Shown here piece by piece: positions 6,104-51,793 of a DNA stretch of 64,000 nucleotides (position 1 is its first letter; every line of letters starts with the position of its first letter). The notes under the pieces were generated by a model. It saw nothing but the letters and a program-made list of their open reading frames with translations, was not told the DNA's origin and ran no database searches. The translations under genes were made by a program, and so were the position numbers. The DNA is from an uncultured Clostridia bacterium (GTDB lineage: Bacteria > Bacillota > Clostridia > Christensenellales > CAG-917), in the NCBI GenBank assembly GCA_934254835.1, contig CAKQMI010000001.1, positions 14,588 to 78,587 of the forward strand. The letters are read 5' to 3'.

Positions 6104-6166
6104 ACTAATTTACTTTATAATAAAAATTCTCACCAAAAATCGGCGAGAATTCCTTTCGCCATTCGC

Positions 6167-6306
6167 AAAATCGGCGATTCTATACACTCTAAAACGGCAG
6201 TCGCCATTTCTCTTTCTCCAAAATCGGCGATTTTATGCTCTCTAAAACGGCAGTCGCTACTTCTCTTTCTCCAAAATCGGCGATTTTATACTCTCTAAAA
6301 CGGCAG
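6167..6306. repeat. 53-bp tandem repeat, about 2.6 copies
   Basis: AAAATCGGCGATT..CTCTAAAACGGCAGTCGC..TTCTCTTTCTCC restarts at 6167, 6220 and 6273. The last copy merges into the hairpin unit. Confidence 0.85.
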
Positions 6307-6421
6307 AATTTTGATGAGATTACGGGGTTCTTGGCGGGTTCCGAAAAATCCAGTGTACTTTGCGTACACGATTTTTCGGGTTCTGCCAAAACGCCGTAAG
6401 GTCGCAAAATTATGCCGTTTT
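6297..6421 (-). repeat. 125-bp three-tier hairpin unit, copy A1
   Basis: Outer arms AAAACGGCAGAATTTTGAT / TCGCAAAATTATGCCGTTTT, middle stem TTGGC/GCCAA, apical hairpin GTGTAC-TTTGC-GTACAC. Read on the minus strand it begins 2 nt after the jag stop codon. Confidence 0.8.
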
Positions 6422-6423
6422 AA

Positions 6424-7236
6424 TTAAAAGTGTTTTTTGGTATAGCCAAAGGATTTAAACTTCGGCGGTCCGTTCTTCTTCAGATTAAACTCCGTTGCGG
6501 TGTCCTCGGCGGATTTCACGGCGGGGGCTTCGGTGCAATTTTCGCGACGTTCGCCGTTTCTTCCTCTGTTTCTGTCGTTGCGCCTGTTGTCGGGGCGTCT
6601 TCCGCCACGGTCGTTATCGTAGCCTTCGCGCACGCCTCCCTCTTTGGGGACGATGACGATATGACGATTCATATCCTCGCCCTCCGACTCGGTGGTGGCG
6701 AACTTGCTGTTTTGAAGCGCGGTGTGAATGACGCGACGCTCGAACGGGTTCATAGGTTCAAGCTCGACTTTTCTTCCGGTGCGGTACGCCTTGTAGGCAA
6801 GGCGGTTGGCAAGGGACTCAAGCGTTTCGACGCGTTTTTCGCGGTAGTTTTCGGCGTTGATGGACACGCGGATAAAGTTGTGTCCGCGCTCGTTCACGAG
6901 GATAAGCGCAAGATACTGAATGGCGTCCAGCACTTCCCCGCGATAGCCGATGATGACACCGCTGTCGCTTCCCGTGATATTGACGGTGATTTCCTCGTCG
7001 CTGACCTCGCAATCGGCGTAGCAACGAAGGTTCATTCTTTCAAAAAGCCCGTTCAAGAAATCGATGACGATGTCCGCGGGGGTTTCCTTGCGCGCCACGG
7101 TCACGACCGCTTTGCTGAAAATTCCGCCTTCTTGCAAAATCTCGATTTCGGCGTTATCTCTTTCGATGCCGAGCTCTTTCAAGCCTTCCTCGATTGCCTT
7201 TTCGACCGAGGACGCTTTGACTTCTATCTTTTCCAT
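6424..7236 (-). CDS. jag: Jag/KhpB RNA-binding protein (Jag_N-KH-R3H) with Arg/Gly/Asn-rich C-terminal extension
   Basis: 270 aa with R3H-type FERRVIHTAL. Position downstream of yidC is as in Bacillota. The tail reads DNDRGGRRPDNRRNDRNRGRNGERRE. Confidence 0.85.
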   Translation of the reverse strand: MEKIEVKASSVEKAIEEGLKELGIERDNAEIEILQEGGIFSKAVVTVARKETPADIVIDFLNGLFERMNLRCYADCEVSDEEITVNITGSDSGVIIGYRGEVLDAIQYLALILVNERGHNFIRVSINAENYREKRVETLESLANRLAYKAYRTGRKVELEPMNPFERRVIHTALQNSKFATTESEGEDMNRHIVIVPKEGGVREGYDNDRGGRRPDNRRNDRNRGRNGERRENCTEAPAVKSAEDTATEFNLKKNGPPKFKSFGYTKKHF

Positions 7237-8632: not shown

Positions 8633-8970
8633 TTGGAATGGCTCAAAAGTTCGGCCTTTTTGAGGAGCGACCTCATCGAATCGGCAATTTCGCTACTTTT
8701 CTTGCCGTAGACTGTGCTTCTCGCCACGAATATCAGATTGTGTCCTGGGGTTATCTCGGTTATCGCTTGGCGGACGCTCTCGCGCATCTGCCTCTTTACC
8801 CTGTTGCGCTGGACGCTTCCGCCGACTTTCTTAGAAACCGAAAATCCGACTTTCAACGCCCCTTTCGTCTTTACTACGTACAAAACGAAATCGTCGTTTG
8901 AAAAAACCGTGCCTTTCCTGTAAATGTAGTTGAAAGACGCGCGCTTTTTTAACTTATATTCCTTTTGCAT
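8629..8970 (-). CDS. rnpA: Ribonuclease P protein component
   Basis: 113 aa basic protein located between rpmH and yidD. Confidence 0.9.
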   Translation of the reverse strand: MQKEYKLKKRASFNYIYRKGTVFSNDDFVLYVVKTKGALKVGFSVSKKVGGSVQRNRVKRQMRESVRQAITEITPGHNLIFVARSTVYGKKSSEIADSMRSLLKKAELLSHSK

Positions 8971-8998
8971 CGGTGCGACGAGCCCTCAGCCCGCACAA

Positions 8999-9139
8999 TT
9001 AGTTGTGCGGGGCAAGTCTTGCTCTGCCTTTGTTGCGACGACGTTTCAATACGTTGCGTCCTTGCTTGGTTTGCATTCTTTTCCTGAAACCGTGTACCTT
9101 GGTTACGTGTCTTTTCTTGGGTTGGAATGTCCTTTTCAT
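8999..9139 (-). CDS. rpmH: 50S ribosomal protein L34
   Basis: [49 protein letters not shown] at 9139 follows AAGGAGG. The ORF-track start at 9193 is too far upstream. Confidence 0.95.
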
Positions 9140-9202
9140 ATATGCCTCCTTAATAGGGATTATTTCTTCACTATTGTTATTATAATATAACAATGCCAGT
9201 CA

Positions 9203-9231
9203 ATTATAAGTAAATTTCCCCTCGGTGTCAA
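9203..9231 (-). promoter_or_regulatory. Putative sigma-A promoter of rpmH operon
   Basis: On the minus strand, TTGACA (9231-9226), a 17-nt spacer, then TATAAT (9208-9203). Confidence 0.5.
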
Positions 9232-9587
9232 CCGATTTGACGACTTTAAGGAAATGACGGCGTTAAGTTTTTTTGTGTTTATTTGATATATAATCAGACC
9301 TTGCTTTTCGATTTTCGGTTTTTCTTGCGCCTTTCGTGCAAGCATTGTGAATGCCACCCGAGAATGTTTCCAACTGTCTTCGCCCGCGTTTTTGTCAAAA
9401 GCCTTGTTGCACTCTCGGCAAAAACGCAAAGTATTAGACCGTTCGCGCGCCAAGTTTTCGCCATAAACCGCACGGCAACGCTCTCTCAACCCGTTTCTTT
9501 TATGATTTTTGAAAAGACGAGTGCGGTTGATATTTTTGTACAAAATGACCTTATCAAAAAGCAAGAATATCAGCGTTTTAAAAAAAC

Positions 9588-9619
9588 AAACCGTACAAAG
9601 TACGGTTTAACCTTTTTTC
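9588..9619. terminator. Bidirectional intrinsic terminator
   Basis: Stem AAACCGTA / TACGGTTT with loop CAAAG. An A-run lies on the left and a T-run on the right. It sits downstream of the SdpI-like gene. Confidence 0.65.
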
Positions 9620-9708
9620 TTTCGAGTTTTGCCGATTCTTGCGTTTTCTCGATTTGCAAAACAACTCGGTTTTTGTCGTTTTTCGAAAACCTTACATTTG
9701 TATAGTTT

Positions 9709-10080
9709 TTAATCGGTTTGCTTTTTGTTTTTATTTTCACGTTTTCTTTTTACAAAAAGCCTCGCTTCGGTAATAATAATCGGCGCAAGAATATTCACAA
9801 TGACGCTTCCTACAAAATACCAAAATAAGTCGATTTTGATATTAAAACAGTATTTTGATATTATCAGAGCTATGCCAACAACCATTGATGTTATTGCCAA
9901 AATTATCATTACTTTTGGGGCAAATTTGTTTGCATATTTCCAGTATTCCTCGTTTATTGATGACCGCTTGGTACGATACCCGTACAAACTGTTCATCGGA
10001 GGCGTTTTAATAAGCAATATTATTGATGCCAATATGAGCGACAGTTGAATACCGAACGTATAAAAAAGATCTCTCCACAT
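9709..10080 (-). CDS. SdpI/YhfL-family membrane protein
   Basis: 123 aa with 3-4 TM helices and the family-like motif NSLYGYRTKRSSINEEYW. RBS AAGGAGGG. Confidence 0.6.
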   Translation of the reverse strand: MWRDLFYTFGIQLSLILASIILLIKTPPMNSLYGYRTKRSSINEEYWKYANKFAPKVMIILAITSMVVGIALIISKYCFNIKIDLFWYFVGSVIVNILAPIIITEARLFVKRKRENKNKKQTD

Positions 10081-10525
10081 AATCCCTCCTTTTGTCAGAA
10101 AAAAACCCCTCCGAAATTAACTTTGTCGCACTTTACTTCTGAAAAAGCAAATATTCCGCTTTTAATCTTTTGAGGCCTTGAATTTTTCCAAGCAGTAACT
10201 CTGAAACTAAAAATTAACAGGCAAAAAAATAAACAAAAGATTTTATTTATTAAATTATATCATCTACTCTCTCCATTGTCAATATTTGTTCTTTTTCCGG
10301 TTTTTTCCTAAATCGAGCAAACGGGTTTTTTCTCCCTCGTATATCGAACTGCTCCGCCAATAATCAAACCACAAATCTCGCCTTTTCTTTTCGTTTCTCG
10401 TTTTTGTTCACCCAACAGTAACCCTGTCCAAATAACTCTGTCACAGAATCTTAAACGTAGTTGCCCTTCAAAAAACCGTCGCAAAATCGTTGAACCTTGC
10501 GAAACCATTCTTCCCGACAGACTAT

Positions 10526-10541
10526 CGTTTCACGCGAAACA
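10526..10541. promoter_or_regulatory. parS-like site 1
   Basis: CGTTTCACGCGAAACA matches the Bacillota parS consensus TGTTNCACGTGAAACA at 14 of 16 positions. Confidence 0.5.
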
Positions 10542-10773
10542 ATGGCTTTTTGCGCGCAAAAACCATTTACTAAAATCAACAATACCGCGCCGTCACCCCT
10601 TGTCAATGAGCCTAATCGGAACACAACATGCTCCACATGCATTCAGTCACAAGGTAATCATGGCTACAAAACGGAAAACCGCCGAACCGTTCAACAACTC
10701 GAAAGAATAAACAATGTCTCCGCCAAAAGGAACTATCCTCATCAACAACTCGGATAAATTTGTCGGACAAACA

Positions 10774-10797
10774 ATGCCAACCGTGAATAATACGAAC
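10774..10797. repeat. Conserved 24-mer ATGCCAACCGTGAATAATACGAAC, copy X
   Basis: Identical to 11907-11930 and to the reverse complement of 12161-12184, while the flanks are strongly diverged. Confidence 0.9.
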
Positions 10798-11075
10798 TGT
10801 ACTAATCCGAAACAACCTCTCTTTTGCAGTCAGACAGAACGAAAATATTAAAAATTGACGCCCCGTAAGCACGGGCGCATAATTTAACAACTAAACCACC
10901 ATACCATGAACATTAAACACGCAAGCCGACATTCGCACCCGAAACAATCCGTAATATACTTTTTGCTTTATTATACAACTATTTGTGGCACCACAAACAT
11001 TGCACATCCACATTGCCAAACTCACCCGCAATAGTTTTGCTTAAACAAAGCATTTTCTCTTCCATTCTTGTCATT

Positions 11076-11096
11076 GCACGCGAGCGGGTTAATACT
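11076..11096. repeat. Conserved 21-mer GCACGCGAGCGGGTTAATACT, copy W
   Basis: Identical to the reverse complement of 11989-12009. About 65 nt of weaker similarity follows in both copies. Confidence 0.9.
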
Positions 11097-11906
11097 CTAT
11101 TCCTAAGCCATAAGCGCAACAACAACTTTGTCAAAAATACAACGTCGGATCTGCGTGACCAAATCGTCAATAATTTTGACTATTTTTGAAAAAAGCAACC
11201 ACCACTACACTTGTCGTACAGAGGCGAATTTTTGCAAAACACGGATATTGCGACAATTTGGCAATGTTCATATTATCCTTGTCCGATAATAAAAACCCTA
11301 TTGTTTTTGCCTAACGAAATTATCACAAATTAAAAACAGGAACGCTGTTAAAGCAAGCAACTAATTCACTGAGAGTTTTGAAAAAAGTCTCAAATCTTTC
11401 TTTCGGAACCCTTTTTAATTTGAAAACCAAATACGACGTTACAAATAACCGAAAATATTAACCGGTCGCACATGTTCTATTTATAAAAGCATTCCTAACC
11501 GCATAAAAAAGAAACCTCCAAAAACCCCGTCTATTTTGGTAATAACAAGCTAAAACACGGCTATAAATCTTTTGCGCCACACAACACAGGAAATAACAAG
11601 GAAAGTATTCTCGAAGTCACGATATAACCATACTCGCATAATATTCTGTCTCTCACCAACCAATGTGCCCAATTTTCCCGATCTTTGAAAATTCGCCACT
11701 TGAAACACAGTAACAAGCAATTAACAAAAACATAATAAACAAACATATAAACGTCACTCAAATCCGCCAAAACCACGCTGACAAATTAAAAATCGGACAA
11801 ATACAATGATATATCGTTTCAAGAAAAGGCCAAACAAGGGCAAAACCATTACAAAAACATCAAATTTATTCAACGGGGCACGAATTTGATTTTTTATTTT
11901 TATAAT

Positions 11907-12184
11907 ATGCCAACCGTGAATAATACGAACCGTGGTCTTGCTCCGTGTTTTTGACCAAAACCTCGTTGCGCTCACGGCTTATACATACAGTATTAACCCG
12001 CTCGCGTGCCTTGTTTTCGTCTAAAAACGCGGGGGCAATACTCCTTAGACCAAACCACCGAGAATTTCGATGATTTTTGGGAAAAATGAACGCAGTTGTA
12101 CTTTTGGTACTACAAGCGAGTTTTTGCAAAAAAGCACGGAAATATCGGCGATTTCTAACAGTTCGTATTATTCACGGTTGGCAT
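11907..12184. repeat. 278-bp inverted-repeat element with perfect 24-bp termini (MITE-like or long-hairpin locus)
   Basis: The termini at 11907-11930 and 12161-12184 are exact reverse complements. The subterminal ~90 nt of both halves are recognisably related (CAAAAACACGGA next to the 24-mer). No ORF and no obvious target-site duplication. Confidence 0.6.
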
Positions 12185-12474
12185 GCAACGGCTATTCAAA
12201 CGGCGAGAAAAACATAATAAACCAAAGAAACACCCGCTTTACTATATTTTTCTCGCTATTGCAACATAAACAAATTATCAAACACAACCAATCGAAAAAT
12301 AGAACGTAAACAAGATTTTCAAAAAGCACGTTGACAGGCAATTCTTTTTTTTCAATAATATGTTAAATATACATAAACCCTGTCAACATAAAACATTCTT
12401 TGAGGTCGATTATCTCAAATATGACGTTTCTATCCGTTGACATTATGTAGATTTTCTGGGAAAAGAGCAAAAAG

Positions 12475-12483
12475 ATATCCACA
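12475..12483. promoter_or_regulatory. DnaA box-like 9-mer (1 mismatch)
   Basis: ATATCCACA versus consensus TTATCCACA. Confidence 0.45.
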
Positions 12484-12497
12484 ATGTTACTATCGAA

Positions 12498-12513
12498 CGT
12501 TTCACGTGAAACA
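12498..12513. promoter_or_regulatory. parS-like site 2
   Basis: CGTTTCACGTGAAACA matches the parS consensus at 15 of 16 positions. Confidence 0.65.
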
Positions 12514-12564
12514 ACGATGATTTTACGCTATTTTTGCTTGTCTAAAAATTGTTCCGTTTTCATA

Positions 12565-12580
12565 TGTTTCACGCGGAACA
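12565..12580. promoter_or_regulatory. parS-like site 3
   Basis: TGTTTCACGCGGAACA matches TGTTTCACGTGGAACA at 15 of 16 positions. Confidence 0.65.
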
Positions 12581-12585
12581 AAAAG

Positions 12586-12594
12586 TTGTCCACA
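12586..12594. promoter_or_regulatory. DnaA box-like 9-mer (1 mismatch)
   Basis: TTGTCCACA, sandwiched between parS-like sites 3 and 4. Confidence 0.45.
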
Positions 12595-12596
12595 AT

Positions 12597-12612
12597 TGTT
12601 CCACGCGGAACA
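12597..12612. promoter_or_regulatory. parS-like site 4
   Basis: TGTTCCACGCGGAACA matches at 14 of 16 positions. Confidence 0.5.
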
Positions 12613-12736
12613 AAACGGTGCTTTTTGGCGGGTTTTTGGGCGTTTTTCCTTGGTTTTAAGCGGTTTATTGCGGTTTGTTTGCGGTGAATTACGGCATTTT
12701 CGTTTCTTTCTCCGTGTAAAATTGGCATACCGCTTT

Positions 12737-12745
12737 TGTGGATAA
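12737..12745. promoter_or_regulatory. DnaA box (perfect consensus, reverse orientation)
   Basis: TGTGGATAA is the reverse complement of TTATCCACA. Confidence 0.6.
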
Positions 12746-12829
12746 CTTTTGCTATTTTTTGGACAAGTATAATCATCGTGCTTTGTGGCAATAATATAAG
12801 CAATTTATTAAGGAAAATGGTGGTTTTTT

Positions 12830-12976
12830 ATGAAATGTACGTCGTGTAATGAGGCTTTTTCGCCTGATAAAATGTTTGTTTGTAAGTCTTGTGGCGCTTG
12901 TTTTTGTGAAAACTGTGTGAAAAACAACGATAATTCTTGTTTGAAATGCGGTACCGTGCTTGACAGATTTAACTAA
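12830..12976 (+). CDS. Hypothetical 48-aa Cys-rich (zinc-ribbon-like) small protein
   Basis: Own ORF, below the track size cutoff: MKCTSCNEAFSPDKMFVCKSCGACFCENCVKNNDNSCLKCGTVLDRFN, with four CxxC pairs. GGTGG lies 6 nt upstream. Caveat: the G/T-rich strand inflates TGT/TGC codons. Confidence 0.3.
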   Translation: MKCTSCNEAFSPDKMFVCKSCGACFCENCVKNNDNSCLKCGTVLDRFN

Positions 12977-13004
12977 ATGCGCAATTTTTGCCAGCAAAAA
13001 GGCG

Positions 13005-13020
13005 TGTTTCACGTAAAACA
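13005..13020. promoter_or_regulatory. parS-like site 5
   Basis: TGTTTCACGTAAAACA matches at 15 of 16 positions. Confidence 0.6.
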
Positions 13021-13530
13021 TTGTCGTTTTTTTTGCCTTGCTTTTTTATCGGTTTTTGGTTATTTTTTCAGCAAGAAATTATTTCTTTTAGGCTCAAAAT
13101 GGCTTTTTTTTGCATATAATCGGCGACATTTGGTTTGCAACTTGTCTGCTACTGCTACAACGTTATTTCTTTGTTTTCTTGCGGGTAAATAGGCTTATTC
13201 TTGCAACGAATTTGTCTTTGTGCGCGCACGGTGAATCGCATTGTTTTCGAAACGTTATTGTTTTTCAAAAGTTGTTGGCATAACTATTGGGTTTTTGTTA
13301 AAAACAAGAAGTTCTCTGGCTTTTATGGTTTATTTTATTTTGGGAGTATTACGCTTGTCCGCCATGGGTTTTGCGATTTTTTAACTGCGACGGATTCTCT
13401 TTATGAAATAGCTTGCTTTCAACTATTTGTTATGTTGATTGTTTTTCAAAACTTGTTATGTTCGGTTACTTTGTTTGCTATTTGTTCTTTCAATTATTTT
13501 CAAAAACGATAAGGTATTTGTGTTAATTCC

Positions 13531-13556
13531 AAATAAAAACCCCGCCGTCGGCGGAG
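13531..13556 (-). terminator. Intrinsic terminator downstream of luxS
   Basis: GC stem CCGCC-GTC-GGCGG followed on the minus strand by TTTTTATTT. Confidence 0.5.
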
Positions 13557-13580
13557 TAACCATTGTATATGCGCGGATAA

Positions 13581-27769: not shown

Positions 27770-28135
27770 GCTTGCGCAGGATTGTGCCTACGGCACGATA
27801 GTTGCCTGTCGGCACGAAGCGGTGCCTTCCCAGGGGATTGTCACGTCACTTCGTTCCTCACAATGACAACTCTGTTTGTCATTCTATGGCATTGCGAGAG
27901 GATTCTCTCTTCTGTCTTTCTGTTGCGTTGCGAGAGTATTCTCTTTTCTGTCATTCTGAGGCATCGCCATAGGAGATGCCGTGAGAATCTCCCGGAAGGG
28001 ACACCTTGTGAAAAGAGGAGTCTCTGTACGATGTGTGCCTGTCGGCACGAAGCGGTGCCTTCCCAGGGGATTCCCGCGCTTCGCTCGGAATGACAAAACT
28101 GCATTGCCATTGTGAGAGAAAGGGGTACATTCGTC
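27770..28135. repeat. Intergenic repeat cluster B
   Basis: Several copies and arms of the GTCATTCTGAGG...GTGAGAATCTC family in both orientations (for example 27949-28005 forward, 28037-28094 reverse). Confidence 0.85.
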
Positions 28136-29409: not shown

Positions 29410-29890
29410 CTCCGATTTTGCCAACTTGCGATTTGTCGGCTTTTGACATTCCGAGGCATTTATGCGGTGCCTTCCCAGGGGATTGTCACGTCACCCGTCG
29501 CACACTTCACTTTTGAAATCACGTTAACGCAAGCGATAACGCTCGCTCTTTTGCTCGTGTGCGCCTTTTTCTCCACGCAAGTACAAAAGAATCTTGCGTG
29601 GGTTTTAACAAGGTGTCCCTTCCGGGAGATTGCCACGCTACGCTCGCAATGACATAAAGTGAGTTGCACCGAATAGCAAAAGAGAGCACGAAAATCTGCT
29701 ATTTTTTAACAAGCAAACCGTTTTCCCCTTCTGCACGAAGTACTTAATGTCTTTCCAAGCGAAGAGTGGCGTTCATCTCTCTTCTGTCATTCTATTGCGT
29801 TGCGTGAGGATTCTCTCTTCTGTCATTCTGAGGCATCGCCACAGGCGATGCCGTGAGAATCTCGTGGGAACGAACCTTATGAAATGATGA
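29410..29890. repeat. Intergenic repeat cluster C
   Basis: Contains a ~95-nt module homologous to the reverse complement of 38518-38612 and GTCATTCTGAGG-family copies (29821-29873 forward, 29590-29655 reverse). Confidence 0.85.
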
Positions 29891-30042
29891 GCCTTTCGGC
29901 ACGTTGCGGTGTCGCGAGGAAGGGCGAGAGGACGGCACGACTTTACAAAACAAATGAAAAAATTACTTTTGTTTGCAAAAAATATTGAAATAAACCTTTA
30001 TATTATGCTATAATTACTATATCTTGAAATTTGGAGGAAATT

Positions 30043-31314
30043 ATGGCAGATTTTGACTTCAAAGTCGCATCCGAAAGTATGATGGACTTTATCAAAAAAG
30101 TCGAGACAGAAATCGGTCCGCGTCTTCCCGGCTCCGACGAGGAACGCGCCGGCGCAAAACTCATCAAAGAAGAGTATGAAAAAAACATTGGTATTAAGCC
30201 CGTGTCCGAACCGTTCAAGGTTGCCCCCGAAAGCGGAATCGGCTCGATTCCTTATATCGGTATCGGCGGACTTATCGCACTCATCGGCTTTTTCATTTAT
30301 CCGATAGTAGGCGCGGTTATCGCGGTGCTTTGCTTCCTGTACTTTGCGGTTATGGGCGGATTTTACACCCAGATTTTCGACTTCCTGTGGAAAAAGAAAG
30401 ACACCGAAAACTTCTATACCGTGCAAGAGCCGTTGTCGGGCAAGGTTGACTACACAATCGTATTGTCGGCGCACTACGACAGCAGTTGGAACTGGAATCT
30501 TGCAAAGAAAAACCCCAAAACCTTCATTCCGAAAATCGTATACGGCGTCGTGGGACTCCTTTCGATTTTGGTGTTCGGTTTCGTGTTGCAATTCGCGGAT
30601 AAAGGGGCGTACGCTCAGCCCTTGTGGACAAACGCCGCTTCAATCACTACTTGGAAATGGTACGTCTATCTCGGCTATATCCTGCCCATCGTCTGCATAC
30701 CGGGGCTTTACTATATCACGCAATTCTTGTCGCACGACAAAACCATCGCGTCCCCCGGCTGTATGGACAACCTCACGGGCATCGGCTTGAACCAAGAAAT
30801 CGCAAAACACTTCAACCGTCACCCCGAAGATTTGCCCGAAAACTGCCGTCTTATCTGCGCCGCTATGGCGTGTGAGGAGTCCGGACTTCGTGGCGCACGC
30901 GCTTTCGTCAAACTCCACAAGGACGACGGTATGCTCAAAAATTGCTATCAAATCAACGTCGACAGTATCTCGGACGAGGACTACTTCGAGGTCATTCAAG
31001 GCGACGCAATTCAAATGTGCAAATTCGATATGGAACTGGGCGATATGCTTTACGAATCCTTGCAGGAACTCGGTCTTGTCAAAAAGACAGGCAGAATTTG
31101 GAACCCCGTCGGCGGTTGCGACAGCACCCCGTTCTGCCGTGCAGGCGTGAAAACAATCACCTTCGCCGCGCAAAACCCCATCGCCACCGACTACTACCAC
31201 ACTTCCAACGATAAGTCGGATCGCTTAAAGACCAGCGTGTTCGAGGGAGGCATCGAGGCGGTGTATAGGACTATTAAGAAAATCGGCGCAAAAGAAGACG
31301 CGAAACGTCAATAA
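30043..31314 (+). CDS. M28-family peptidase-like membrane protein
   Basis: ATG at 30043 follows GGAGG. It has internal TM helices, SAHYDS and CEESGLRGA motifs, and a paralog at 43448..44761. Confidence 0.65.
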   Translation: MADFDFKVASESMMDFIKKVETEIGPRLPGSDEERAGAKLIKEEYEKNIGIKPVSEPFKVAPESGIGSIPYIGIGGLIALIGFFIYPIVGAVIAVLCFLYFAVMGGFYTQIFDFLWKKKDTENFYTVQEPLSGKVDYTIVLSAHYDSSWNWNLAKKNPKTFIPKIVYGVVGLLSILVFGFVLQFADKGAYAQPLWTNAASITTWKWYVYLGYILPIVCIPGLYYITQFLSHDKTIASPGCMDNLTGIGLNQEIAKHFNRHPEDLPENCRLICAAMACEESGLRGARAFVKLHKDDGMLKNCYQINVDSISDEDYFEVIQGDAIQMCKFDMELGDMLYESLQELGLVKKTGRIWNPVGGCDSTPFCRAGVKTITFAAQNPIATDYYHTSNDKSDRLKTSVFEGGIEAVYRTIKKIGAKEDAKRQ

Positions 31315-31427
31315 TTTGCGATCTTTTGAGTTTTTTCGAGAACCTGAAAATCCGTGTACGCAATAGTACACTAGGATTTTCAGAACCCCGAAAGAAACGT
31401 CAAAACCTCATCAAATTCTTGACGTTT
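31303..31427 (+). repeat. 125-bp three-tier hairpin unit, copy D1
   Basis: Arms AAACGTCAATAATTTGCGAT / ATCAAATTCTTGACGTTT, apical hairpin CTGAAAATCC-GTGTAC-GCAATA-GTACAC-TAGGATTTTCAG. Its first 12 nt encode the last three codons and the TAA stop of the upstream gene. Confidence 0.85.
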
Positions 31428-31604
31428 CGTACAACATATATAATCGCACTTTTTGAGTTTTCGGCAGAACTTGCTCGGTTGCGTACGAAATAGTACGCGC
31501 GCTCGCAAAACCTGCCGAGAAACGTCAATGGGGCCCCCGCGAGATACTTTGTACTCGTGGGGCATAGAGGCATCAAATTCTTGACGTTTCGTACAACATA
31601 TATA
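31428..31604 (+). repeat. Variant hairpin unit D2 with an extra inserted hairpin
   Basis: Shares the inner left arm and full right arm with D1. It carries GCGTAC-GAAATA-GTACGC and GGGGCCCCCGCGAGATACTTTGTACTCGTGGGGC hairpins. The direct repeat TTGACGTTTCGTACAACATATATA occurs at both ends. Confidence 0.75.
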
Positions 31605-31610
31605 AATTAA

Positions 31611-31637
31611 AGCATCTCGAACGAGGTGCTTTTTTTG
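31611..31637 (+). terminator. Intrinsic terminator downstream of the D1/D2 repeats
   Basis: Stem AGCATCTCG / CGAGGTGCT followed by T7. Confidence 0.7.
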
Positions 31638-31740
31638 TGTCGTTTTCCCCATTCAGGGAACCCGCGCGTCGCTAACCCTGAATTCCCCTTTCACGGGTTT
31701 TGAAAAGCGTGGTTTTCAAAAACCGAACAGCGGTGGATTA

Positions 31741-32045
31741 ATTATAATATATCATAAGATGTCATTCTGAGGAGCGAAGCGACGTGAGAATCTCCCGGAA
31801 GGGAACCTTGTTGCTTATGCAGTGATATGCCTACGGCGTGATATTGTCTTCGACAGTGATATTGCGTTGCAGTGATATTTGCCCTGTGGGCAAGTTGCGG
31901 ATAAACACCTTAGCTTTGGCGACAGCCAAAATATAACTTTGACGAAGTCAAAATATAATTTGCATTGCAAATATAACTTGCGTAGCAAATTTAACTTGCG
32001 TAGCAAATTTAACTTGCGAAGCAATCTAACCCACGCAAGACACTT
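31741..32045. repeat. Repeat cluster D, distal part (GTCATTCTGAGG arm plus mini-hairpin arrays)
   Basis: 31761-31807 is a family arm. 31819-31900 holds GTGATAT plus a small hairpin, four times. 31935-32027 holds five ~18-nt units of the form AACTTGCNNNGCAAAT. Confidence 0.8.
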
Positions 32046-37200: not shown

Positions 37201-37352
37201 AACTGAACAACTGGGGCAATCTCGGGCTTAAAGAAACCGACGATGAACTCAAAAAGAAAGTTTACTACAACGGCGCAACAATCGAGGTTGGCGATATGAA
37301 AGCGGTCGAATTCTTAATCCTTGCTATCAAAGCATTGCCGACGCTACCATGA
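34275..37352 (+). CDS. Large (1025 aa) N-terminally membrane-anchored repeat protein, unknown function
   Basis: RBS GGAGGAAAT. One N-terminal TM helix, then at least six copies of a ~40-aa module, for example ALADKTIGDLQERGIDDLINDALLSDVMDIDG and GLQDKTIGNLSSGVDVVVGGTKLHDVLEIDG. Confidence 0.75.
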   Translation: MKGALGRFLTFLLGLVVGVLLVGGTIAGVVYYAVAGVTINDVENYTKQEFTFIDKNAEIRGKSLLDIYDMMKGGNIRETTVADAKRVFGIDIITILENTLEIKVDDKNRDKLSALKVTEIFKGDNLKTVLNCVTLGDILQKTGVDTTTGLASKPILQEHINEPVIDGLNAMLKSFEINNMTIAEMQYLLGVSFGAGGVLDTIANVKIGELNSAINNVKFEDILPDFDRDHYTMWDSANKKAVRFSRKSAQFTVNSLFKTDGTSDFFEYVPTDKKVGGETYYALDAEKGIIKVSDNGNWKLKEGKELPDFRNRYDKEGNQNRFGIAYVVPKDSHGMTVTERYKDDACTISDESGLFYYEYTENASGDYYRVGAAIRTKIQDATATEPAKYSEIIEWRGYVEKTKADYFEAEPWKTYGYSRSGEVTDEKLMEHDSDDALAIYALMHVGKSEPVLKALADETLNTLDGAIGDMKLGQIVTINDDSPAILKELKNSSISSIGEDIKKIKIGTIMKVNADNVAEKATDGEYIALPAGKEYKGTFITAKDGDKTVYLVKYKKGLVGFGERYNITEKASNGVVVALADKTIGDLQERGIDDLINDALLSDVMDIDGDVFVEDASGEFVFDTDTAGKNGFFRLATAGEDATHKRVYEGASNAVVKKLSTVGVQNIANRMDDVVDSTLLKEVVDVQERYELRKATTDEIANNAVKKYFDLTAIYGDKDTVFEGTFNVGYDQDDEDKKDIRFVSVGDTSLPAGTTQYVIVKKASSGVLVGLQDKTIGNLSSGVDVVVGGTKLHDVLEIDGRVYVKANNYEEAVANSVTGTAYYKDGNLFLEADYIRNKNGKYVKIDGKYYEFGNLYKETAGGYVVDNANGTHFLYEGNYYKIADYKRYNFDGETVTEFYACVYEGKTEKILAKMATMTVQDLAKDGTMEKVMNDMRLNEVMKIKDSTSILYGLDNSKLSSVEAEVTDKIKDATLRELNNWGNLGLKETDDELKKKVYYNGATIEVGDMKAVEFLILAIKALPTLP

Positions 37353-37924
37353 CCTATCACGTTAGAAAATACAAAGACGAGGATCGCGACGCCGTAAGGA
37401 AGATTTGTCACCTCACGGCAACCGCGCCCGCCTACGTCAAAAATCCCGAACTTGTCGCAACGCTTTACGCCGATTATTACATCGAGTTCGAGCCCGACGG
37501 CATTTTCGTTTTGGCGCGCGACGAGGACGACGTGGCGGTCGGCTATATCCTGTCGAGCCTTGACTACAAATCATTTTTGAAAACTTTCAATAAGTACTTT
37601 ATGCCACGGGTAAGGAAACTTTCAAGGCTTGAAGCGTTCACGCACTTTTTCGCTTTCCGCCAAAGTCTTTATATGGACGCGAAAAAATACCCCGCGCACC
37701 TGCATATCGACATTTTGCCCGGGGCGCAACACCAAGGATACGGCGCGAAACTTATGGACGCACTCATGGACTACCTCTTTGAAAAGGGCGTGAAAGGCGT
37801 GCATCTGGGCGTCGGCGCGGACAACGCGGGCGCAATCAGGTTTTACGAGAAGTATGGGTTTACGATGATACACAACTTTAAATCTTTTGGCAAAGTCTTC
37901 GCCAAAACAATAAAACGGCGATAA
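37349..37924 (+). CDS. GNAT-family N-acetyltransferase
   Basis: 191 aa with an acetyl-CoA motif region QHQGYGAKLMDAL and AIRFYEKYGF. An ATGA overlap links it to the upstream gene. Confidence 0.8.
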   Translation: MTYHVRKYKDEDRDAVRKICHLTATAPAYVKNPELVATLYADYYIEFEPDGIFVLARDEDDVAVGYILSSLDYKSFLKTFNKYFMPRVRKLSRLEAFTHFFAFRQSLYMDAKKYPAHLHIDILPGAQHQGYGAKLMDALMDYLFEKGVKGVHLGVGADNAGAIRFYEKYGFTMIHNFKSFGKVFAKTIKRR

Positions 37925-38035
37925 TTTGCGATATTCTGCTTTTTCGGCGGAACCCCGCTCGGTTACGTACGTCAGTACGCGCCCTCGCGAGAACCCGCCG
38001 AGAAAAACACAATCTCATCAAATTCTCGCCGTTTT
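37912..38035 (+). repeat. 124-bp three-tier hairpin unit, copy E1
   Basis: Its outer 43 nt and 45 nt are identical to copy F1 (50812-50936), but the apical hairpin differs (ACGTAC-GTCA-GTACGC core). Its first 13 nt encode K-R-R and the TAA stop of the GNAT gene. Confidence 0.9.
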
Positions 38036-38080
38036 ATAGGGAAAGAATTATCTCATCAAAATTCTGACTTTTTAGAGGCA

Positions 38081-38250
38081 GGGGACCCCGCGGGATACTG
38101 TGTACCCGTGGGGAGAAGGAGCAAACGAGCATAAGACAAACAAACAAATGAAATGAGATTGTTTGGTCAAAAGCGAGATTTGCGACGCGTACACTAGGAT
38201 TTTCAGAACCTGCAAAGAACCCCAAAAATCCATCAAATTCTCGCCGTTTT
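38081..38250 (+). repeat. 170-nt conserved module, copy E2
   Basis: About 90 percent identical by eye to 51207-51377. It has a GGGG..CCCGCGGGATACT.TGTAC..CG.GGGG hairpin, a CAAACAAACAAA tract, GCGACGCGTACACTAGGATTTTCAGAAC, and ends in ATCAAATTCTCGCCGTTTT. Confidence 0.85.
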
Positions 38251-38289: not shown

Positions 38290-38800
38290 TTTTTAATAGA
38301 TTTTATTTGTCATTGCGAGCGTCGTGACGTTTCTTTCTTCTGTCATTGCGAGGAGCGAAGCGACGTGGCAATCTCCCGGAAGGGTATCCTTTTATGTCAT
38401 TCTGAGGAGCGAAGCGACGTGAGAATCGCCTGGGAAGGCACCATATCATACTGGCATTTATGAGGTTTCGTTCCCACGAGATTCCCACGCTACGCTCGGA
38501 ATGACAACAAGAGTTTCTCACACAAGCAAAAGAGTGAGCGTTATCGCTTGCGATAACGTGATTTCAAAAGCGAAGTGTGTGACGCAGTGACGTGGCAATC
38601 TCCCGGAAGGGTATCCTTTTATGTCATTCTGAGGAGCGAAGCGACGTGAGAATCTCCCGGAAGGGCAACCTTGTTGCTTTCGCAGTGATATTGTCTTCGA
38701 CAGTGATATTTGCCCTGCGGGCAAGTTGCGGATAAATACCTTAGCTTTGGCGACAGCCAAAATATAACTTGCATTGCAAAAATAATCGTTCTTGTCCTCG
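38290..38800. repeat. Repeat cluster E, distal part
   Basis: Contains GTCATT(C/G)(T/C)GAGG-family arms at 38341, 38395 and 38623, the 95-nt module at 38518-38612, and a GTGATAT mini-hairpin array at 38681-38783 homologous to 31819-31960. Confidence 0.85.
38395..38506. repeat. 112-bp palindromic element of the GTCATTCTGAGG family
   Basis: TGTCATTCTGAGGAGCGAAGCGACGTGAGAATCGCCTGGGAAGGCACC, a 21-nt loop, then GGTTTCGTTCCCACGAGATTCCCACGCTACGCTCGGAATGACA. Homologs are at 50969-51080 and 51483-51600. Confidence 0.85.
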
Positions 38801-48701: not shown

Positions 48702-50098
48702 TGAAAGAAAAAGAAGAGTCGCATATAATAAAAATGCGCAGACAACTGAAAACTTTTATGACGCCGACAAGGTACGTCTTGCTCGGGTTCATCAGCGTAA
48801 TCGCATTCGGCACGATTTTGCTTCTTCTCCCGTTTGCCTCGACAAGCGGGAAGACGATGGGGTTTGTGTCGGCGCTGTTCACCTCGACGACGTCCGTTTG
48901 CGTGACGGGGCTGACCGTCGTCGATCCCGCCACCGACCTTACGATTTTCGGACAACTTGTCGTGCTGTTTCTTATACAAGTGGGCGGGCTGGGGTTCATG
49001 ACCACGACGACGCTCATGTTCATACTTATCGGCAAAAAAATCAGTCTGAAAGAGCGCATGACCATTCAGGAGTCCTTGGATCAGGACAACCTGAAAGGCG
49101 TCGTGAAACTTGCAAAGCGAATTGTTGCGTTCACGTTCATTTTCGAGGCGTTCGGCAGTGTTATGCTTATGACCAGATTTGTGCCGTTGCTCGGTGCGCG
49201 CGGGATATACGTTGCGATATTCACGGCGGTTTCGTCGTTCTGCAACGCCGGCATCGACATTATGGGCAAAGACTTCGGCGCGTATTCCAGCCTTTCGGCG
49301 TTTTCGGGCGATCCCGTGGTGCTTATCACCGTTGCGGTGCTGATTATATCGGGCGGGCTCGGATTTTTGGTTTTCAACGACGTATTAAGAAAAAGGAAAA
49401 ATCGTCCGCTTCGTTTGCACACGCGCGTGTCGCTTGCAATGACGGCGGTATTGCTTGTCGTCGGCACGGCGATTTTCCTCGGCATAGAGTACAATAATCC
49501 GCAAACCCTCGGCAAAATGGACTGGGGCGACAAAATCATGAACGCGTTCTTCCAGTCCGCCACCTCAAGGACGGCGGGTTGGTCGTCGTTCAATCAGGCA
49601 GGGCTCACCGACGGCGCAAAGGTCGCGACAATCGCGCTTATGTTCATCGGAGCGTGTCCCGCATCGACGGGCGGTGGCGTCAAAACGACAACCGTATTCG
49701 TCATGCTCGCGCTTATCGTGTCGGTGTTCCGCGGAAAGGACGATATCGTCGTCGGCAAGGAAACAATCAACTCGAAAACGGCGAAAAGGGCGGCGGTCGT
49801 CACCACGGTATATTTGGTCGGCGCGTTCGCGCAGGCAATCATCATCTGGGCAAGCGAGGCGGGATACGGCATGCACTTGTCCTTTGTCGACAGTTTGTTC
49901 GAGGCGTTCAGCGCGTTCGGCACCGTCGGCGTTTCGGCAGGACTTACGACGTCGTTGCACGCGCCCGCTCTTCTTACAATGTGTCTTTCGATGTTCATCG
50001 GGCGTCTTGGGCTGTTGACAATCGGCTCCGCCATTATGAAATCAAAAAATCAATCGGCAAATATTAAATACCCCGATGCCAAAATTCTTATCGGATAA
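48698..50098 (+). CDS. ktrB: Potassium uptake protein, TrkH/KtrB family
   Basis: 466 aa polytopic protein with repeated selectivity-filter-like segments (TGLT, NAG, TAGW, STGGG). It has an ATGA overlap with ung. Confidence 0.88.
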   Translation: MMKEKEESHIIKMRRQLKTFMTPTRYVLLGFISVIAFGTILLLLPFASTSGKTMGFVSALFTSTTSVCVTGLTVVDPATDLTIFGQLVVLFLIQVGGLGFMTTTTLMFILIGKKISLKERMTIQESLDQDNLKGVVKLAKRIVAFTFIFEAFGSVMLMTRFVPLLGARGIYVAIFTAVSSFCNAGIDIMGKDFGAYSSLSAFSGDPVVLITVAVLIISGGLGFLVFNDVLRKRKNRPLRLHTRVSLAMTAVLLVVGTAIFLGIEYNNPQTLGKMDWGDKIMNAFFQSATSRTAGWSSFNQAGLTDGAKVATIALMFIGACPASTGGGVKTTTVFVMLALIVSVFRGKDDIVVGKETINSKTAKRAAVVTTVYLVGAFAQAIIIWASEAGYGMHLSFVDSLFEAFSAFGTVGVSAGLTTSLHAPALLTMCLSMFIGRLGLLTIGSAIMKSKNQSANIKYPDAKILIG

Positions 50099-50113
50099 GC
50101 GGAGGTTTATTTT

Positions 50114-50806
50114 ATGAAAAATAAAAACAAATCCAAAAACAGACAATCCAAAAATAAACAGTTTGCGGTCATAGGTCTTGGAAGATTCGGCTCCACCGTC
50201 GCCAAAACCTTGTTTGAAAAAGGCGAGGAAGTGCTTGCCGTCGATATCAGGGAAGAAATTATCACCGAGGCGCACGAATACACCACCCACGCCGTCGTCG
50301 CCGACGTCACCGATGAGCGTACCTTGCGCGCGCTCGGCATCGAAAACTTTGACGTCGTCATCATCGGCATTGCCAGCGACTTGGAAGCAAGCGTCTTGTG
50401 CACCCTCACTTGCAAGGAAATCGGCGTCAAAAAGGTCATCGCAAAGGCGGAAAACCTTAAACATAAGCTCGTGTTGGAGCGCGTCGGCGCGGACGAGGTC
50501 GTCATTCCCGAAATGGAAATGGGCGAAAAAATGGGCGCACGCCTTTCCAACCCATTGCTCCACGACATTATGACAATCAGCAGTAAATACAGCATCATCG
50601 AGATGGAACTGCCGTCCAGCTGGGCGGGAAGCTCGCTCATCTCTCTCGATATCCGCAAAAAGTACGACGTCAACGTTTTGGCGGTCGAGCGCGACAACGA
50701 CGTCATTCTCAACTTCGCCGCCGACGAACCCCTCCTCGAGGGCGATACCTTGCTTGTCGGGGGGAGTAGGGAGATGCTTGACCTTCTGCAAAACCAATAC
50801 AACTAA
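50114..50806 (+). CDS. ktrA: Potassium uptake protein, TrkA/KtrA (RCK) subunit
   Basis: 230 aa with the Rossmann motif FAVIGLGRFG and an RCK_C region. Confidence 0.9.
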   Translation: MKNKNKSKNRQSKNKQFAVIGLGRFGSTVAKTLFEKGEEVLAVDIREEIITEAHEYTTHAVVADVTDERTLRALGIENFDVVIIGIASDLEASVLCTLTCKEIGVKKVIAKAENLKHKLVLERVGADEVVIPEMEMGEKMGARLSNPLLHDIMTISSKYSIIEMELPSSWAGSSLISLDIRKKYDVNVLAVERDNDVILNFAADEPLLEGDTLLVGGSREMLDLLQNQYN

Positions 50807-50811
50807 AACGT

Positions 50812-50936
50812 AAAACGGCGATAATTTGCGATATTCTGCTTTTTCGGCGGAACCTGAAAAATCGTGTACGGTCAGTACACTGGATTTTTCAGAACCCGCC
50901 GAGAAAAACACAATCTCATCAAATTCTCGCCGTTTT
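50812..50936 (+). repeat. 125-bp three-tier hairpin unit, copy F1
   Basis: Starts 6 nt after the ktrA stop. The outer arms are identical to E1. The apical hairpin is CTGAAAAATC-GTGTAC-GGTCA-GTACAC-TGGATTTTTCAG. Confidence 0.9.
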
Positions 50937-50968
50937 GAATTTTGAGACATTCTGCCGTCGAAAGATTA

Positions 50969-51080
50969 TGTCATTCTGAGGAGCGTAGCGACGCGAGAAT
51001 CCCCTGGGAAGGCACCATATCATACTGACGTTTATGCGGTTTCGTTCCCACGAGATTCCCACGCTACGCTCGGAATGACA
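50969..51080. repeat. 112-bp palindromic element of the GTCATTCTGAGG family
   Basis: Homolog of 38395-38506 with the same loop sequence ATATCATACTG.C.TTTATG. Confidence 0.85.
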
Positions 51081-51206
51081 GAAAAGAGCGTTAAGCCACG
51101 CTACGCTCGGAAAGACAACAAGTGCGTCGCACGCAAGGAACACGCTTTCATTACAACCACTTTGGATAGGTACATTCCACTGTCATTCTGAGGCATCGCC
51201 CATTAT

Positions 51207-51377
51207 GGGGCCCCCGCGGGATACTATGTACTCGCGGGGAAAAGGAGCAAACGAGCATAAGACAAACAAACAAACAAAATGAGTTTGTTAGGTCAAAAGT
51301 GAGATTTGCGACGCGTACACTAGGATTTTCAGAACTCCGAAAGAAACGTCAAAAATCCATCAAATTCTCGCCGTTTT
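51207..51377 (+). repeat. 171-nt conserved module, copy F2
   Basis: Homolog of 38081-38250. Confidence 0.85.
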
Positions 51378-51482
51378 GGGAACATATAATTCTGCTGTTT
51401 TGAGCATCATTTCATTAAATTCTTGCCGTTTTAGATATGTTAGTTTACGTCATTCCGAGTGTAGAGTGACGTTTTTCTTTTC

Positions 51483-51600
51483 TGTCATTCTGAGGAGCCC
51501 CAACGGGGCTCCGTGAGAATCTCGTGGGAACGAAACCGCATAAACGTCAGTATGATATGGTGCCTTCCCAGGGGATTCCCACGCTACGCTCGGAATGACA
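51483..51600. repeat. 118-bp palindromic element, central part inverted relative to 50969-51080
   Basis: The loop GCATAAACGTCAGTATGATAT is the reverse complement of the loop in the 50969 copy. One arm carries an extra GC hairpin, AGCCCCAACGGGGCT. Confidence 0.85.
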
Positions 51601-51793
51601 ACAAGTGCGTCGCACGCAGATAACCTCATTATTCAAAAAAACTTCACAAAAAAACCGTATTCATAAGCAAAAAATAACAGGTAGTCACGAATACCCATAC
51701 ACGCTTATTTTTCAGAAACAAAAAACGGCTGTTAATCTATATAGCAAGAGTGTCCCCTTGACAGTCGAAAAAAAAGGAACGACTTGTGAGCAA

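Follow-up and report, generated by a model that had tools for sequence, protein, structure and literature searches.

Palindromic repeat units docked on the stop codons of unrelated genes in uncultured human-gut Clostridia

Introduction

The pneumococcal BOX repeat encodes the stop codon of 36 genes at their extreme 3' end, without evident truncation (PMC3049150), and the termini of GTAG repetitive extragenic palindromic (REP) sequences often provide the TAG stop codon of a flanking open reading frame, ORF (PMC3733652). In Bacillus cereus, the bcr repeats, which resemble transposable elements of the miniature inverted-repeat type (MITEs), are parts of untranslated regions (UTRs), and the presence of bcr3 is correlated with longer-lived mRNA (PMC3446304). 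Here, a family of palindromic units of about 126 nt, placed at or next to the stop codons of genes, is described from a 64-kb stretch of DNA of an uncultured Clostridia bacterium (contig CAKQMI010000001.1; hereafter, the window) and from human-gut metagenomes. With somewhat better than even confidence, the units are read as copies of a lineage-specific, non-coding, modular palindromic DNA repeat of the same kind as BOX, REP/REPIN and MITE-like elements.

Processing within mRNA takes place in ERIC and Correia elements, and Liang, Rudd and Deutscher (Mol Cell 2015) reportedly found that REP sequences within 15 nt of the stop codon lower translation in Escherichia coli. The pile-up of REP-, BOX- and MITE-like repeats at gene ends and their non-autonomous movement are old questions. 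The present family gives a clean signal, with about four fifths of its site clusters docked on TAA, no exception in orientation among the sampled sites and a structural signature that points to one DNA strand and not to the mRNA, which makes both questions testable.

Results

Position and Orientation of the Units

At least 120 loci with the exact right-end pattern of the unit were fetched from metagenomes, nearly all of them human-gut assemblies, and all counts over sites and clusters refer to the loci so listed. An nhmmer model run over these loci (0.88 Mb) and the window gave 173 non-overlapping matches, 88 of them full length. The full-length copies occupy 33 left-flank sites, or about 23 clusters under stricter clustering, and the clusters take in orthologous sites of related species. 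Genes in the loci were called with a simple home-made codon-usage caller, which for the ktrA region of locus L014 agreed with the gene table. Human-gut contigs (Hadza and others) also code for the window's KtrA protein, whose 90% cluster contains Clostridium sp. CAG:349; the host of the repeat is a clade of uncultured human-gut Clostridia related to this organism. A contig scan with the pattern ATAATTTGCGA-N(75-105)-CATCAAATTCT returned chance matches only, since the pattern was too narrow and most copies read ATAATTCGCG.

The gene to the left is co-oriented with the unit at 31 of 31 sites. An in-frame stop codon falls between -13 and +5 nt from the first base of the unit in 17 of the 23 site clusters (18 after correcting one uncalled small gene), while uniform placement in the intergenic gap predicts 1.4 of 23 (Poisson-binomial P = 1.4e-17). 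A preliminary description of the window had proposed distance statistics to stop codons over all copies as a check, and an insertion mechanism targeting gene ends as one explanation of the placement. The metagenome copies display the expected bias, and its strength in position and orientation calls for an insertion or retention process tied to gene ends.

At 13 sites the stop codon consists of a flanking T and the first two A of the unit, at 4 sites it is the internal TAA of the unit, which gives a K-R-R or K-R-Q tail, and at 8 further sites it lies within -1 to +7 nt. Docked stop codons are all TAA, against a background of 68% TAA. The apparent exceptions to docking were an uncalled 80-codon gene of TSCPD type, itself docked, units lying right after the T-run of a terminator, and the second unit of a tandem pair.

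When reverse-complemented, the right end of the unit has the same 10-nt terminus, AAAACGGCGA, yet it lies 70-1458 nt from genes on either strand. Since it is never docked despite the shared terminus, it serves as an internal control and shows that the element has polarity. For ordinary terminators of these loci, the median distance from stop codon to stem is 20 nt, with only 2 of 71 stems starting within 4 nt, so docking is tighter for the units than for terminators.

No functional theme joins the upstream genes, which are housekeeping genes unrelated to one another: phosphoenolpyruvate (PEP) carboxykinase, RNase E/G, GcvPB, aspartate aminotransferase, MnmA, AsnRS, GtrA-like, PHP, Jag, KtrA, GNAT, M28 and FolD-like. 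GNAT homologues lacking the unit end 3-8 residues past the conserved GKVF motif and unit-bearing alleles end 7 residues past it, so this protein is barely altered.

Architecture of the Repeat

The unit is an imperfect palindrome with the arrangement TAAAACGGCGATAATTYGCG … GTAC-loop-GTAC … CATCAAATTCTCGCCGTTTT, in which the central GTAC-loop-GTAC hairpin stands between two direct GAACC motifs. Its left end reads (T)AAAACGGCGAYAATTYGCG and its right end CATCAAATTCTCGCCGTTTT. A conserved purine-rich ARGGRA, which is part of the element, lies 3' of the right end and is often followed by one to three reiterations, each of about 33 nt, of a degenerate right end (ATCAAAATTCTGACTTTTTAGGG). The left terminus, a T followed by AAAACGGCGATAA, is razor-sharp and holds TAA in two reading frames, and the flank to its left carries no information beyond the T at -1; in the common subtype, the terminus is TAAAACGGCGA. 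The terminal inverted repeats AAAACGGCGA / TCGCCGTTTT are paired in 62-63 of 63 copies, the unit is shorter than 300 bp, and no conserved ORF was found in it.

The interiors fall into at least five arm subtypes and two centre subtypes, recombined among copies with the palindrome kept in each. Matched arm pairs among the subtypes are CGGCGG/CCGCCG, TGGCAA/TTGCCA, GACGG/CCGTC and TGCAG/CTGCA, and the termini at the M28 site are GTCAA/TTGAC in place of GGCGA/TCGCC. Compensatory changes were found at 17 of 43 pairs, with a covariation score of 0.272 versus 0.123 in shuffles, and the window units fold with z = -6 to -12 relative to shuffled sequence. Against Rfam 15, the window gave no match at gathering thresholds, only chance matches to miRNA-like hairpins (E>0.06). 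No conserved promoter was found in the unit or its tail, whichever strand is read; a weak TTGACG-N16-GAAAAT occurs in some subtypes only. A conserved small ORF, or a peptide driven by a Shine-Dalgarno sequence, was considered 3' of the purine-rich right flank and, as judged by eye, is not general.

A hairpin module of about 35 nt, GGGGnCCCCrCrrGATAC..GTAC..yGyGGGG, occurs in the right arms of units or after them (31530-31563, 38081-38114 and 51207-51241 in the window, and many loci). It is often followed by a module of about 70 nt (AGCAAACGAGCATAAGACAAAC...TTTGCGACG), which precedes left-truncated units.

Strand Asymmetry of the Pairing

The antisense strand folds better than the sense strand in all 63 distinct units, with mean energies of -61.0 and -45.7 kcal/mol, respectively. 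When one shared helix is imposed, standard pairs fill 98.4% of the cells on the antisense strand and 86.8% on the sense strand. Pairs with double compensatory changes number 17 antisense and 16 sense, and slid controls gave 36-52%. Of the cells without a Watson-Crick pair, 317 read C.A or A.C in the sense strand, where the antisense strand reads G.U, versus 11 with G.U in the sense strand. At polymorphic pairs, the intermediates are C.A or A.C and not G.U (TA/CA/CG at columns 26-102, AT/AC/GC at columns 38-88). Ordinary terminators in the same loci, used as a positive control, show 24 G.U versus 5 A.C on the sense strand. In addition, the sense strand of the units is G-poor, with a GC skew of -0.18 versus +0.016 for genes.

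Mutational bias as the sole cause of this asymmetry was discarded: deamination of cytosines in the sense strand, which is non-transcribed and serves as lagging template, would skew the cells the other way, and the bias of terminators in the same DNA is also the reverse. Taken together, the antisense pairing bias, the terminator control and the direction of deamination suggest that selection maintains the pairing on the antisense strand rather than in the mRNA, so that it would act either as bottom-strand DNA or as antisense RNA. For the same reason, the 3'-UTR role in stability, processing or small RNA (sRNA) production suggested in the preliminary description is not supported. Loading of Rho on the sense RNA, which the excess of C over G might suggest, is unlikely, as this RNA is almost fully paired.

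Copy Identity and Site Polymorphism

Complete units that follow unrelated genes share 97.6-100% identity, as against only 84-95% for the flanking genes of different strains. Contigs coding for an identical KtrA protein show three different junctions and unit subtypes after the stop codon (L014-L020), and many contigs end in or just after the unit (L016-L020), so the units act as breakpoints in short-read assemblies. The M28 site was found with two units, with one unit, or with a left-end-like gene end (GAAACGCAAATAAATTGCG) and a 29-nt mini hairpin, AAAACGGCAA..TTGCCGTTTT. At the FolD-like site, one allele has its K-R-R-stop in the unit, and another has a solitary 20-nt left end (K-Y-R-stop) followed by a complete unit. 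Near-identical copies at unrelated loci and polymorphism at sites, both taken as signs of mobility, are thus present; gene conversion would look alike.

Relatives of the upstream genes show further states. For jag, a relative with 69% identity has no hairpin, one with 79% has a docked unit, and one with 73% (L150) has a genuine terminator of small size, AAAACGCCC..GGGCGTTTTGTTTTTTT, 4 nt past the stop codon. For GNAT, a relative with 74% identity is empty and one with 58% has a mini hairpin with the stop codon in its loop. More distant relatives lack the family at the same genes. In the distant relative L142/L145, a 29-nt mini hairpin, AAAACGCAAAATGAAGAGATTTGCGTTTT, is duplicated together with the adjoining terminator (10569-10597 and 10753-10781), and the loop of the first copy contains TGA, the stop codon of GNAT. 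The outermost 9 bp of the unit resemble the foot of an ordinary A-tract/T-tract terminator, which may be the evolutionary source of the unit or its target.

The apparent empty sites in the fetched loci turned out to be contig ends, unit-to-unit matches, or sites with unit remnants. A T at -1 in 22 of 32 cases and an A at +1 in 23 of 32 would fit a TA duplication, but the ARGGRA with which the right flank continues belongs to the element, and no empty site turned up in a close relative. In viral contigs, one genuine unit was found, in L146 (IMGVR_UViG_3300029711_000209), the others being chance matches. It lies at the same gene end (..PIIIEA*) as in the chromosomal loci L047, L064 and L102, which could reflect a prophage in this region or a misclassified contig.

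Location in the Transcript

A canonical hairpin with a T-run lies between the unit, including its tail modules, and the next gene at 23 of the 33 sites. Since the unit stands there between stop codon and terminator, transcripts are expected to include it as the opening part of the 3' UTR. As far as position in the sequence can tell, this agrees with the preliminary description, which had placed the units in 3' UTRs upstream of a terminator.

The unit was also considered as the terminator of its own gene and rejected, given the short T-tract and the separate terminators that follow. The stem is followed by TTTT only and then by purines, the terminator scan does not call the units, and the U-rich tract of about 7-8 nt that completes a Rho-independent terminator is absent from them. 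The terminators found after units share AAGCACC-loop-GGTGCTTTTTT in L123, L096, L029, L092, L128, L104 and at 31609-31639 of the window, and may be a repeated module of a larger 3'-UTR mosaic.

Copies in the Window

Eight copies or fragments of the repeat lie inside the window; the main ones are listed with their genes in Table 1. The particulars that the preliminary description had read from the letters were recovered. The M28 gene ends as K-R-Q-stop in the left arm of U1 (AAA CGT CAA TAA), the first 13 nt of U1, G AAA CGT CAA TAA, closing this ORF, and the GNAT gene ends as K-R-R-stop in U3, with the same repeat positions and frame. The jag stop codon stands 2 nt before U8. For ktrA, the stop had been placed 6 nt before the repeat; it lies 5 nt before base 1 of U5, which is 6 nt before the AAA from which the earlier count began. 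All four units are co-oriented with their upstream gene, and the stem and T7 terminator reported after the units of the M28 gene was located.

Table 1. Repeat units, associated modules and upstream genes in the window.
Feature	Position	Strand	Description
M28-family peptidase gene	30031..31314	+	427 codons; Pfam PF04389; last three codons and TAA (31303-31314) from the left arm of U1
U1	31302..31428	+	127 nt; full-length variant subtype; termini GAAACGTCAA / TTGACGTTTC; nhmmer 100.9
U2, composite unit	31444..31590	+	nhmmer model positions 16-125; first ~15 nt of the left terminus missing
Intrinsic terminator	31609..31639	+	10-bp stem (stem-loop 31609-31632), 4-nt loop, T7; 3' of U1 and U2
GNAT acetyltransferase gene	37349..37924	+	Pfam; C-terminal K-R-R and TAA (AAA CGG CGA TAA, 37913-37924) from U3
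U3	37912..38035	+	Full length; nhmmer 101.9; repeat families D1, D17
Accessory-module array 3' of U3	38050..38250	+	Sequence, repeat families, nhmmer
ktrA/trkA gene	50114..50806	+	Pfam TrkA_N, TrkA_C; TAA 5 nt before U5
U5	50812..50936	+	Full-length canonical unit; nhmmer 115.4
ktrA-rpsR gap modules	51207..51432	+	Repeat families, sequence, nhmmer
jag/khpB gene	6424..7236	-	Pfam Jag_N, KH, R3H; TAA 2 nt before U8
U8	6297..6421	-	Full length, co-oriented with jag, between jag and mnmE; nhmmer 93.2; fold
Three 53-nt tandem repeats of the U8 right end	6166..6324	-	CTCTAAAACGGCAG on the + strand; repeat family D14

Both arms of U1 are changed jointly with respect to the common GGCGA / TCGCC termini, and its folding energy is -46.5 kcal/mol when the sense strand is folded and -57.2 kcal/mol for the antisense strand. 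The right arm of U2 contains an inserted GGGGCCCCCGCGAG..CTCGTGGGGC hairpin module (GGGG..CCCC, 31530-31563), and a unit of the U2 type stands alone at the M28 site in other strains (alleles L031, L058 and L133). The terminator 3' of both units also follows the M28 gene in strains without long units (L092, L055). U3 and U5 have arms that are 100% identical and different central hairpin modules. Behind U3, the array opens with a tail motif that resembles a right end (38050-38077), continues with a GGGG..CCCC hairpin (38081-38114) and a spacer module, and closes with a unit right half (38180-38250). The gap between ktrA and rpsR holds a GGGG..CCCC hairpin (51207-51241), a spacer module, a unit right half (51311-51377) and a short right-end-only fragment (51387-51432) without a paired left terminus. 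In U8, the 53-nt reiterations take the place of those of about 33 nt.

A 302-codon ORF antisense to ktrA (50042-50950, - strand) runs through U5, whose antisense frame is open; this ORF is spurious and matches nothing in Pfam. Another family of palindromic repeats, unrelated to the units (TGTCATTCTGAGGAGCGAAGCGACGTGAGAATCTCCCGGAAGGG... and its inverse), occupies the same intergenic regions, often beside units, at 27808-28096, 29464-29886, 31760-31812, 38300-38675, 50968-51135 and 51440-51620; it comprises repeat families D3-D5, D8-D11, D15 and D16 and inverted pairs I2-I4, I6 and I7. A 70-nt direct repeat with 97% identity (D19; 31870-31939 and 38701-38770) lies 3' of two unit arrays and 5' of the next genes, and could represent a promoter or leader common to both places, or a further repeat module.

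Away from the units, positions 8970-13580 form a 4.6-kb AT-rich region (38-40% GC) with no ORF longer than 140 codons and no Rfam match. This region coincides with the minimum of the cumulative GC skew and with a DnaA-box-like cluster (12475-12745), and therefore probably holds oriC. Repeats of 27 nt occur in it at 9351, 10774, 11907 and, inverted, 12158.

Discussion

Since near-identical copies stand behind unrelated genes and subtypes are replaced at fixed sites, the units behave as a DNA-level repeat element. The family would spread, or be homogenised, at the DNA level by transposition, site-specific recombination or gene conversion between copies, and this process would pass through a hairpin of the strand complementary to the mRNA, where the pairing is conserved. 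Fixed orientation and docking would reflect the place and manner of insertion and the insertions that are tolerated: a terminus restoring a TAA stop would leave the protein essentially unchanged and thus make the insertion harmless. Orientation could be enforced by the insertion mechanism itself, or by the purging of copies that place the near-perfect hairpin in the mRNA. Any effect on the mRNA, such as that of a bulky 3'-UTR hairpin at the terminating ribosome, would probably be a by-product or a secondary co-option.

Several points weigh against this reading. No known DNA-level mechanism recognises the reading frame and could thereby account for the strictness of docking, and neither a preference for TA or TAA targets nor tolerance alone predicts a start exactly at the stop codon within the 10-30-nt spacer that precedes the terminator. 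Composition alone accounts, in shuffles, for about 7 of the 16 kcal/mol that separate the strands, and several of the asymmetric columns are invariant across the family and thus count as single inherited events. The M28 alleles without a long unit retain a left-end-like gene end, which fits deletion or conversion as well as insertion. Orthologues without the unit, whose comparison had been proposed for recovering the ancestral stop codon, allowed the GNAT protein ends to be compared, but no clean pair of filled and empty sites was found among the loci compared. Likewise, in 0.95 Mb of loci, a search that did not extend to whole genomes, no transposase or recombinase was found and no pair of left and right ends encloses coding DNA as an autonomous copy would. 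Since the site clusters include orthologous sites, independent events are fewer than the raw counts, and ascertainment through the exact right-end pattern and the home-made gene caller has to be set on the same side.

The placement could instead mean that the hairpin is selected by the host in the sense mRNA, as a block to 3' exonucleases, a site for RNase III or RNase Y, an sRNA precursor or a cause of stalling of the terminating ribosome, as for REP sequences near stop codons in E. coli, and is kept at the stop codon because it works there. This is given a minor but appreciable chance. The unit lies between stop codon and terminator at most sites, its orientation to the gene is fixed, it is kept at orthologous sites across strains whose flanking genes have diverged to 84-95% identity, its sense hairpin is still very stable, at about -46 kcal/mol, and the bcr repeats, with bcr3 tracking longer mRNA half-life (PMC3446304), offer a precedent. 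The wobble and mismatch asymmetry, however, shows the pairing to be kept on the opposite strand and is reversed in real terminators, while identical copies at unrelated genes and subtype swapping are unexpected for hairpins that evolved locally, and the upstream genes have no functional theme in common. Were the antisense strand functional as RNA, the unit could form a barrier or terminator for transcription entering from downstream, or a cis-antisense RNA could end at the stop codon; the near-perfect antisense hairpin with its A-tract/T-tract layout, like that of a bidirectional terminator, and a convergent downstream gene at 11 of 28 unit sites (22% in the background) would suit this. Its prospects are nevertheless slim, given that four U residues only follow the antisense hairpin, that the downstream gene is co-directional at 17 of the 28 sites, that no conserved antisense promoter was found in units or tails, and that canonical, often bidirectional terminators are already present.

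Further explanations lie at the DNA level. It is doubtful, without being far-fetched, that the unit is a strand-specific DNA hairpin site of a kind not recognised before, installed precisely at the stop codons of core genes, with docking produced by the insertion mechanism and not by selection after insertion; such a site could be attC- or REP-like and serve a hairpin-recognising recombinase of a Firmicute, or its insertion could be coupled to the end of translation or transcription of the target gene. That the units are recombination sites like integron attC, with a dedicated recombinase reading the folded bottom strand and with conserved terminal boxes as the points of exchange for units or modules, is considered very unlikely. 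Placement at or over the stop codon of the upstream ORF in one orientation, imperfect palindromes of about 125 nt with conserved ends and a variable centre, AAC...GTT kept at the termini, structure conserved on the strand antisense to the ORF and modules swapped at fixed sites all recall attC, but the termini do not fit RYYYAAC/GTTRRRY, the units are dispersed singly behind core genes without cassette arrays, no integrase was identified, and integrons are essentially not known from Firmicutes. Immobile units would also be conceivable, as intrinsic terminator hairpins next to stop codons that were enlarged in place and became alike by convergence or occasional conversion. The terminal 9 bp (AAAACGGCG/CGCCGTTTT) resemble the base of an ordinary A-tract/T-tract terminator, and small hairpins with the same ends occur in relatives (jag in L150, GNAT in L142, M28 in L092). 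This explanation is hardly credible in view of the 97.6-100% identity, over 126 nt, between full copies that follow unrelated genes, of units starting far closer to the stop codon than ordinary terminators do, and of a T-tract of 4 nt only with a separate terminator usually following.

Apart from their origin, the units rewrite the last codons of real proteins, which acquire K-R-R, K-R-Q, K-Y-R or K-K-S tails. They also break metagenome assemblies and can mislead gene callers.

Relation to Known Repeats

The units share with BOX a small, modular, non-coding and interspersed design in Firmicutes, ends that pair into a tightly folded hairpin, a variable number of internal or tail modules and a location in transcribed intergenic DNA. 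The likeness is one of architecture only, as there is no sequence similarity to the boxA, boxB or boxC modules. Of the BOX copies, only about one in four to one in three overlap gene ends, without strict orientation, whereas about 75-80% of the site clusters of the units are docked and 31 of 31 sites are co-oriented; the strand-asymmetric pairing seen in the units is not reported for BOX.

Like REP sequences, the units are high-copy palindromic repeats found mostly downstream of coding regions. REPINs are hairpins of about 100 nt made of two inverted conserved ends, and mobilisation of REP sequences is proposed to work on a single folded strand of DNA. The common unit subtype, in contrast, has neither a GTAG nor a CGTC tag, CGTC being present in the U1 variant of the M28 site only, and it is a single palindrome of 126 nt, while a REP measures 20-40 nt. 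No RAYT gene, coding for the Y1 transposase associated with REP/REPIN, was found for the units, no search aimed at one having been made. The host of the units is a Clostridium, and the REP survey makes no mention of Firmicutes (PMC3733652).

The MITEs ERIC, Correia and RUP agree with the units in size (about 107-155 bp), terminal inverted repeats, high degree of pairing and intergenic, transcribed location, and the TA at both extremities of the unit (TAAAAC...GTTTTA) would be compatible with a TA duplication. They differ in that no cognate insertion sequence was found for the units in the 0.95 Mb of loci, whole genomes lying outside the search, in that the units co-vary as a palindrome over their whole length and not at the ends only, and in that strict orientation and stop docking are not features of ERIC, Correia or RUP.

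As to attC sites, these too keep a fixed orientation and lie at the 3' end of the upstream ORF or across it, are imperfect palindromes of about 60-140 bp with conserved ends and a variable middle, and function and are conserved in the folded bottom strand, in the same way as the unit pairing is conserved antisense. The unit ends, (T)AAAAC... / ...GTTTTA(G), contain AAC and GTT and lack the YYY/RRR positions. Moreover, the units follow dispersed core genes such as jag, ktrA, PEPCK and AsnRS, with no arrays of ORF plus site seen and no integrase identified, and their copies are near-identical in sequence, whereas attC sites are conserved only in structure. SPRITE elements and Rho-independent terminators have the same A-tract, stem and T-tract layout and enrichment near gene 3' ends. 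The unit stem, however, has about 50 bp with only 4 T, a separate canonical terminator usually follows, and the wobble bias is opposite to that of real terminators.

Since MITE, REP, BOX, attC and terminator classes each fail in at least one defining feature, the units are filed under the general kind only. Their attC-like bottom-strand bias is not reported for the BOX, REP and bcr precedents. The phenomenon is thus known in kind, while the family is new in sequence and host and stricter in docking and orientation than any of these three precedents.

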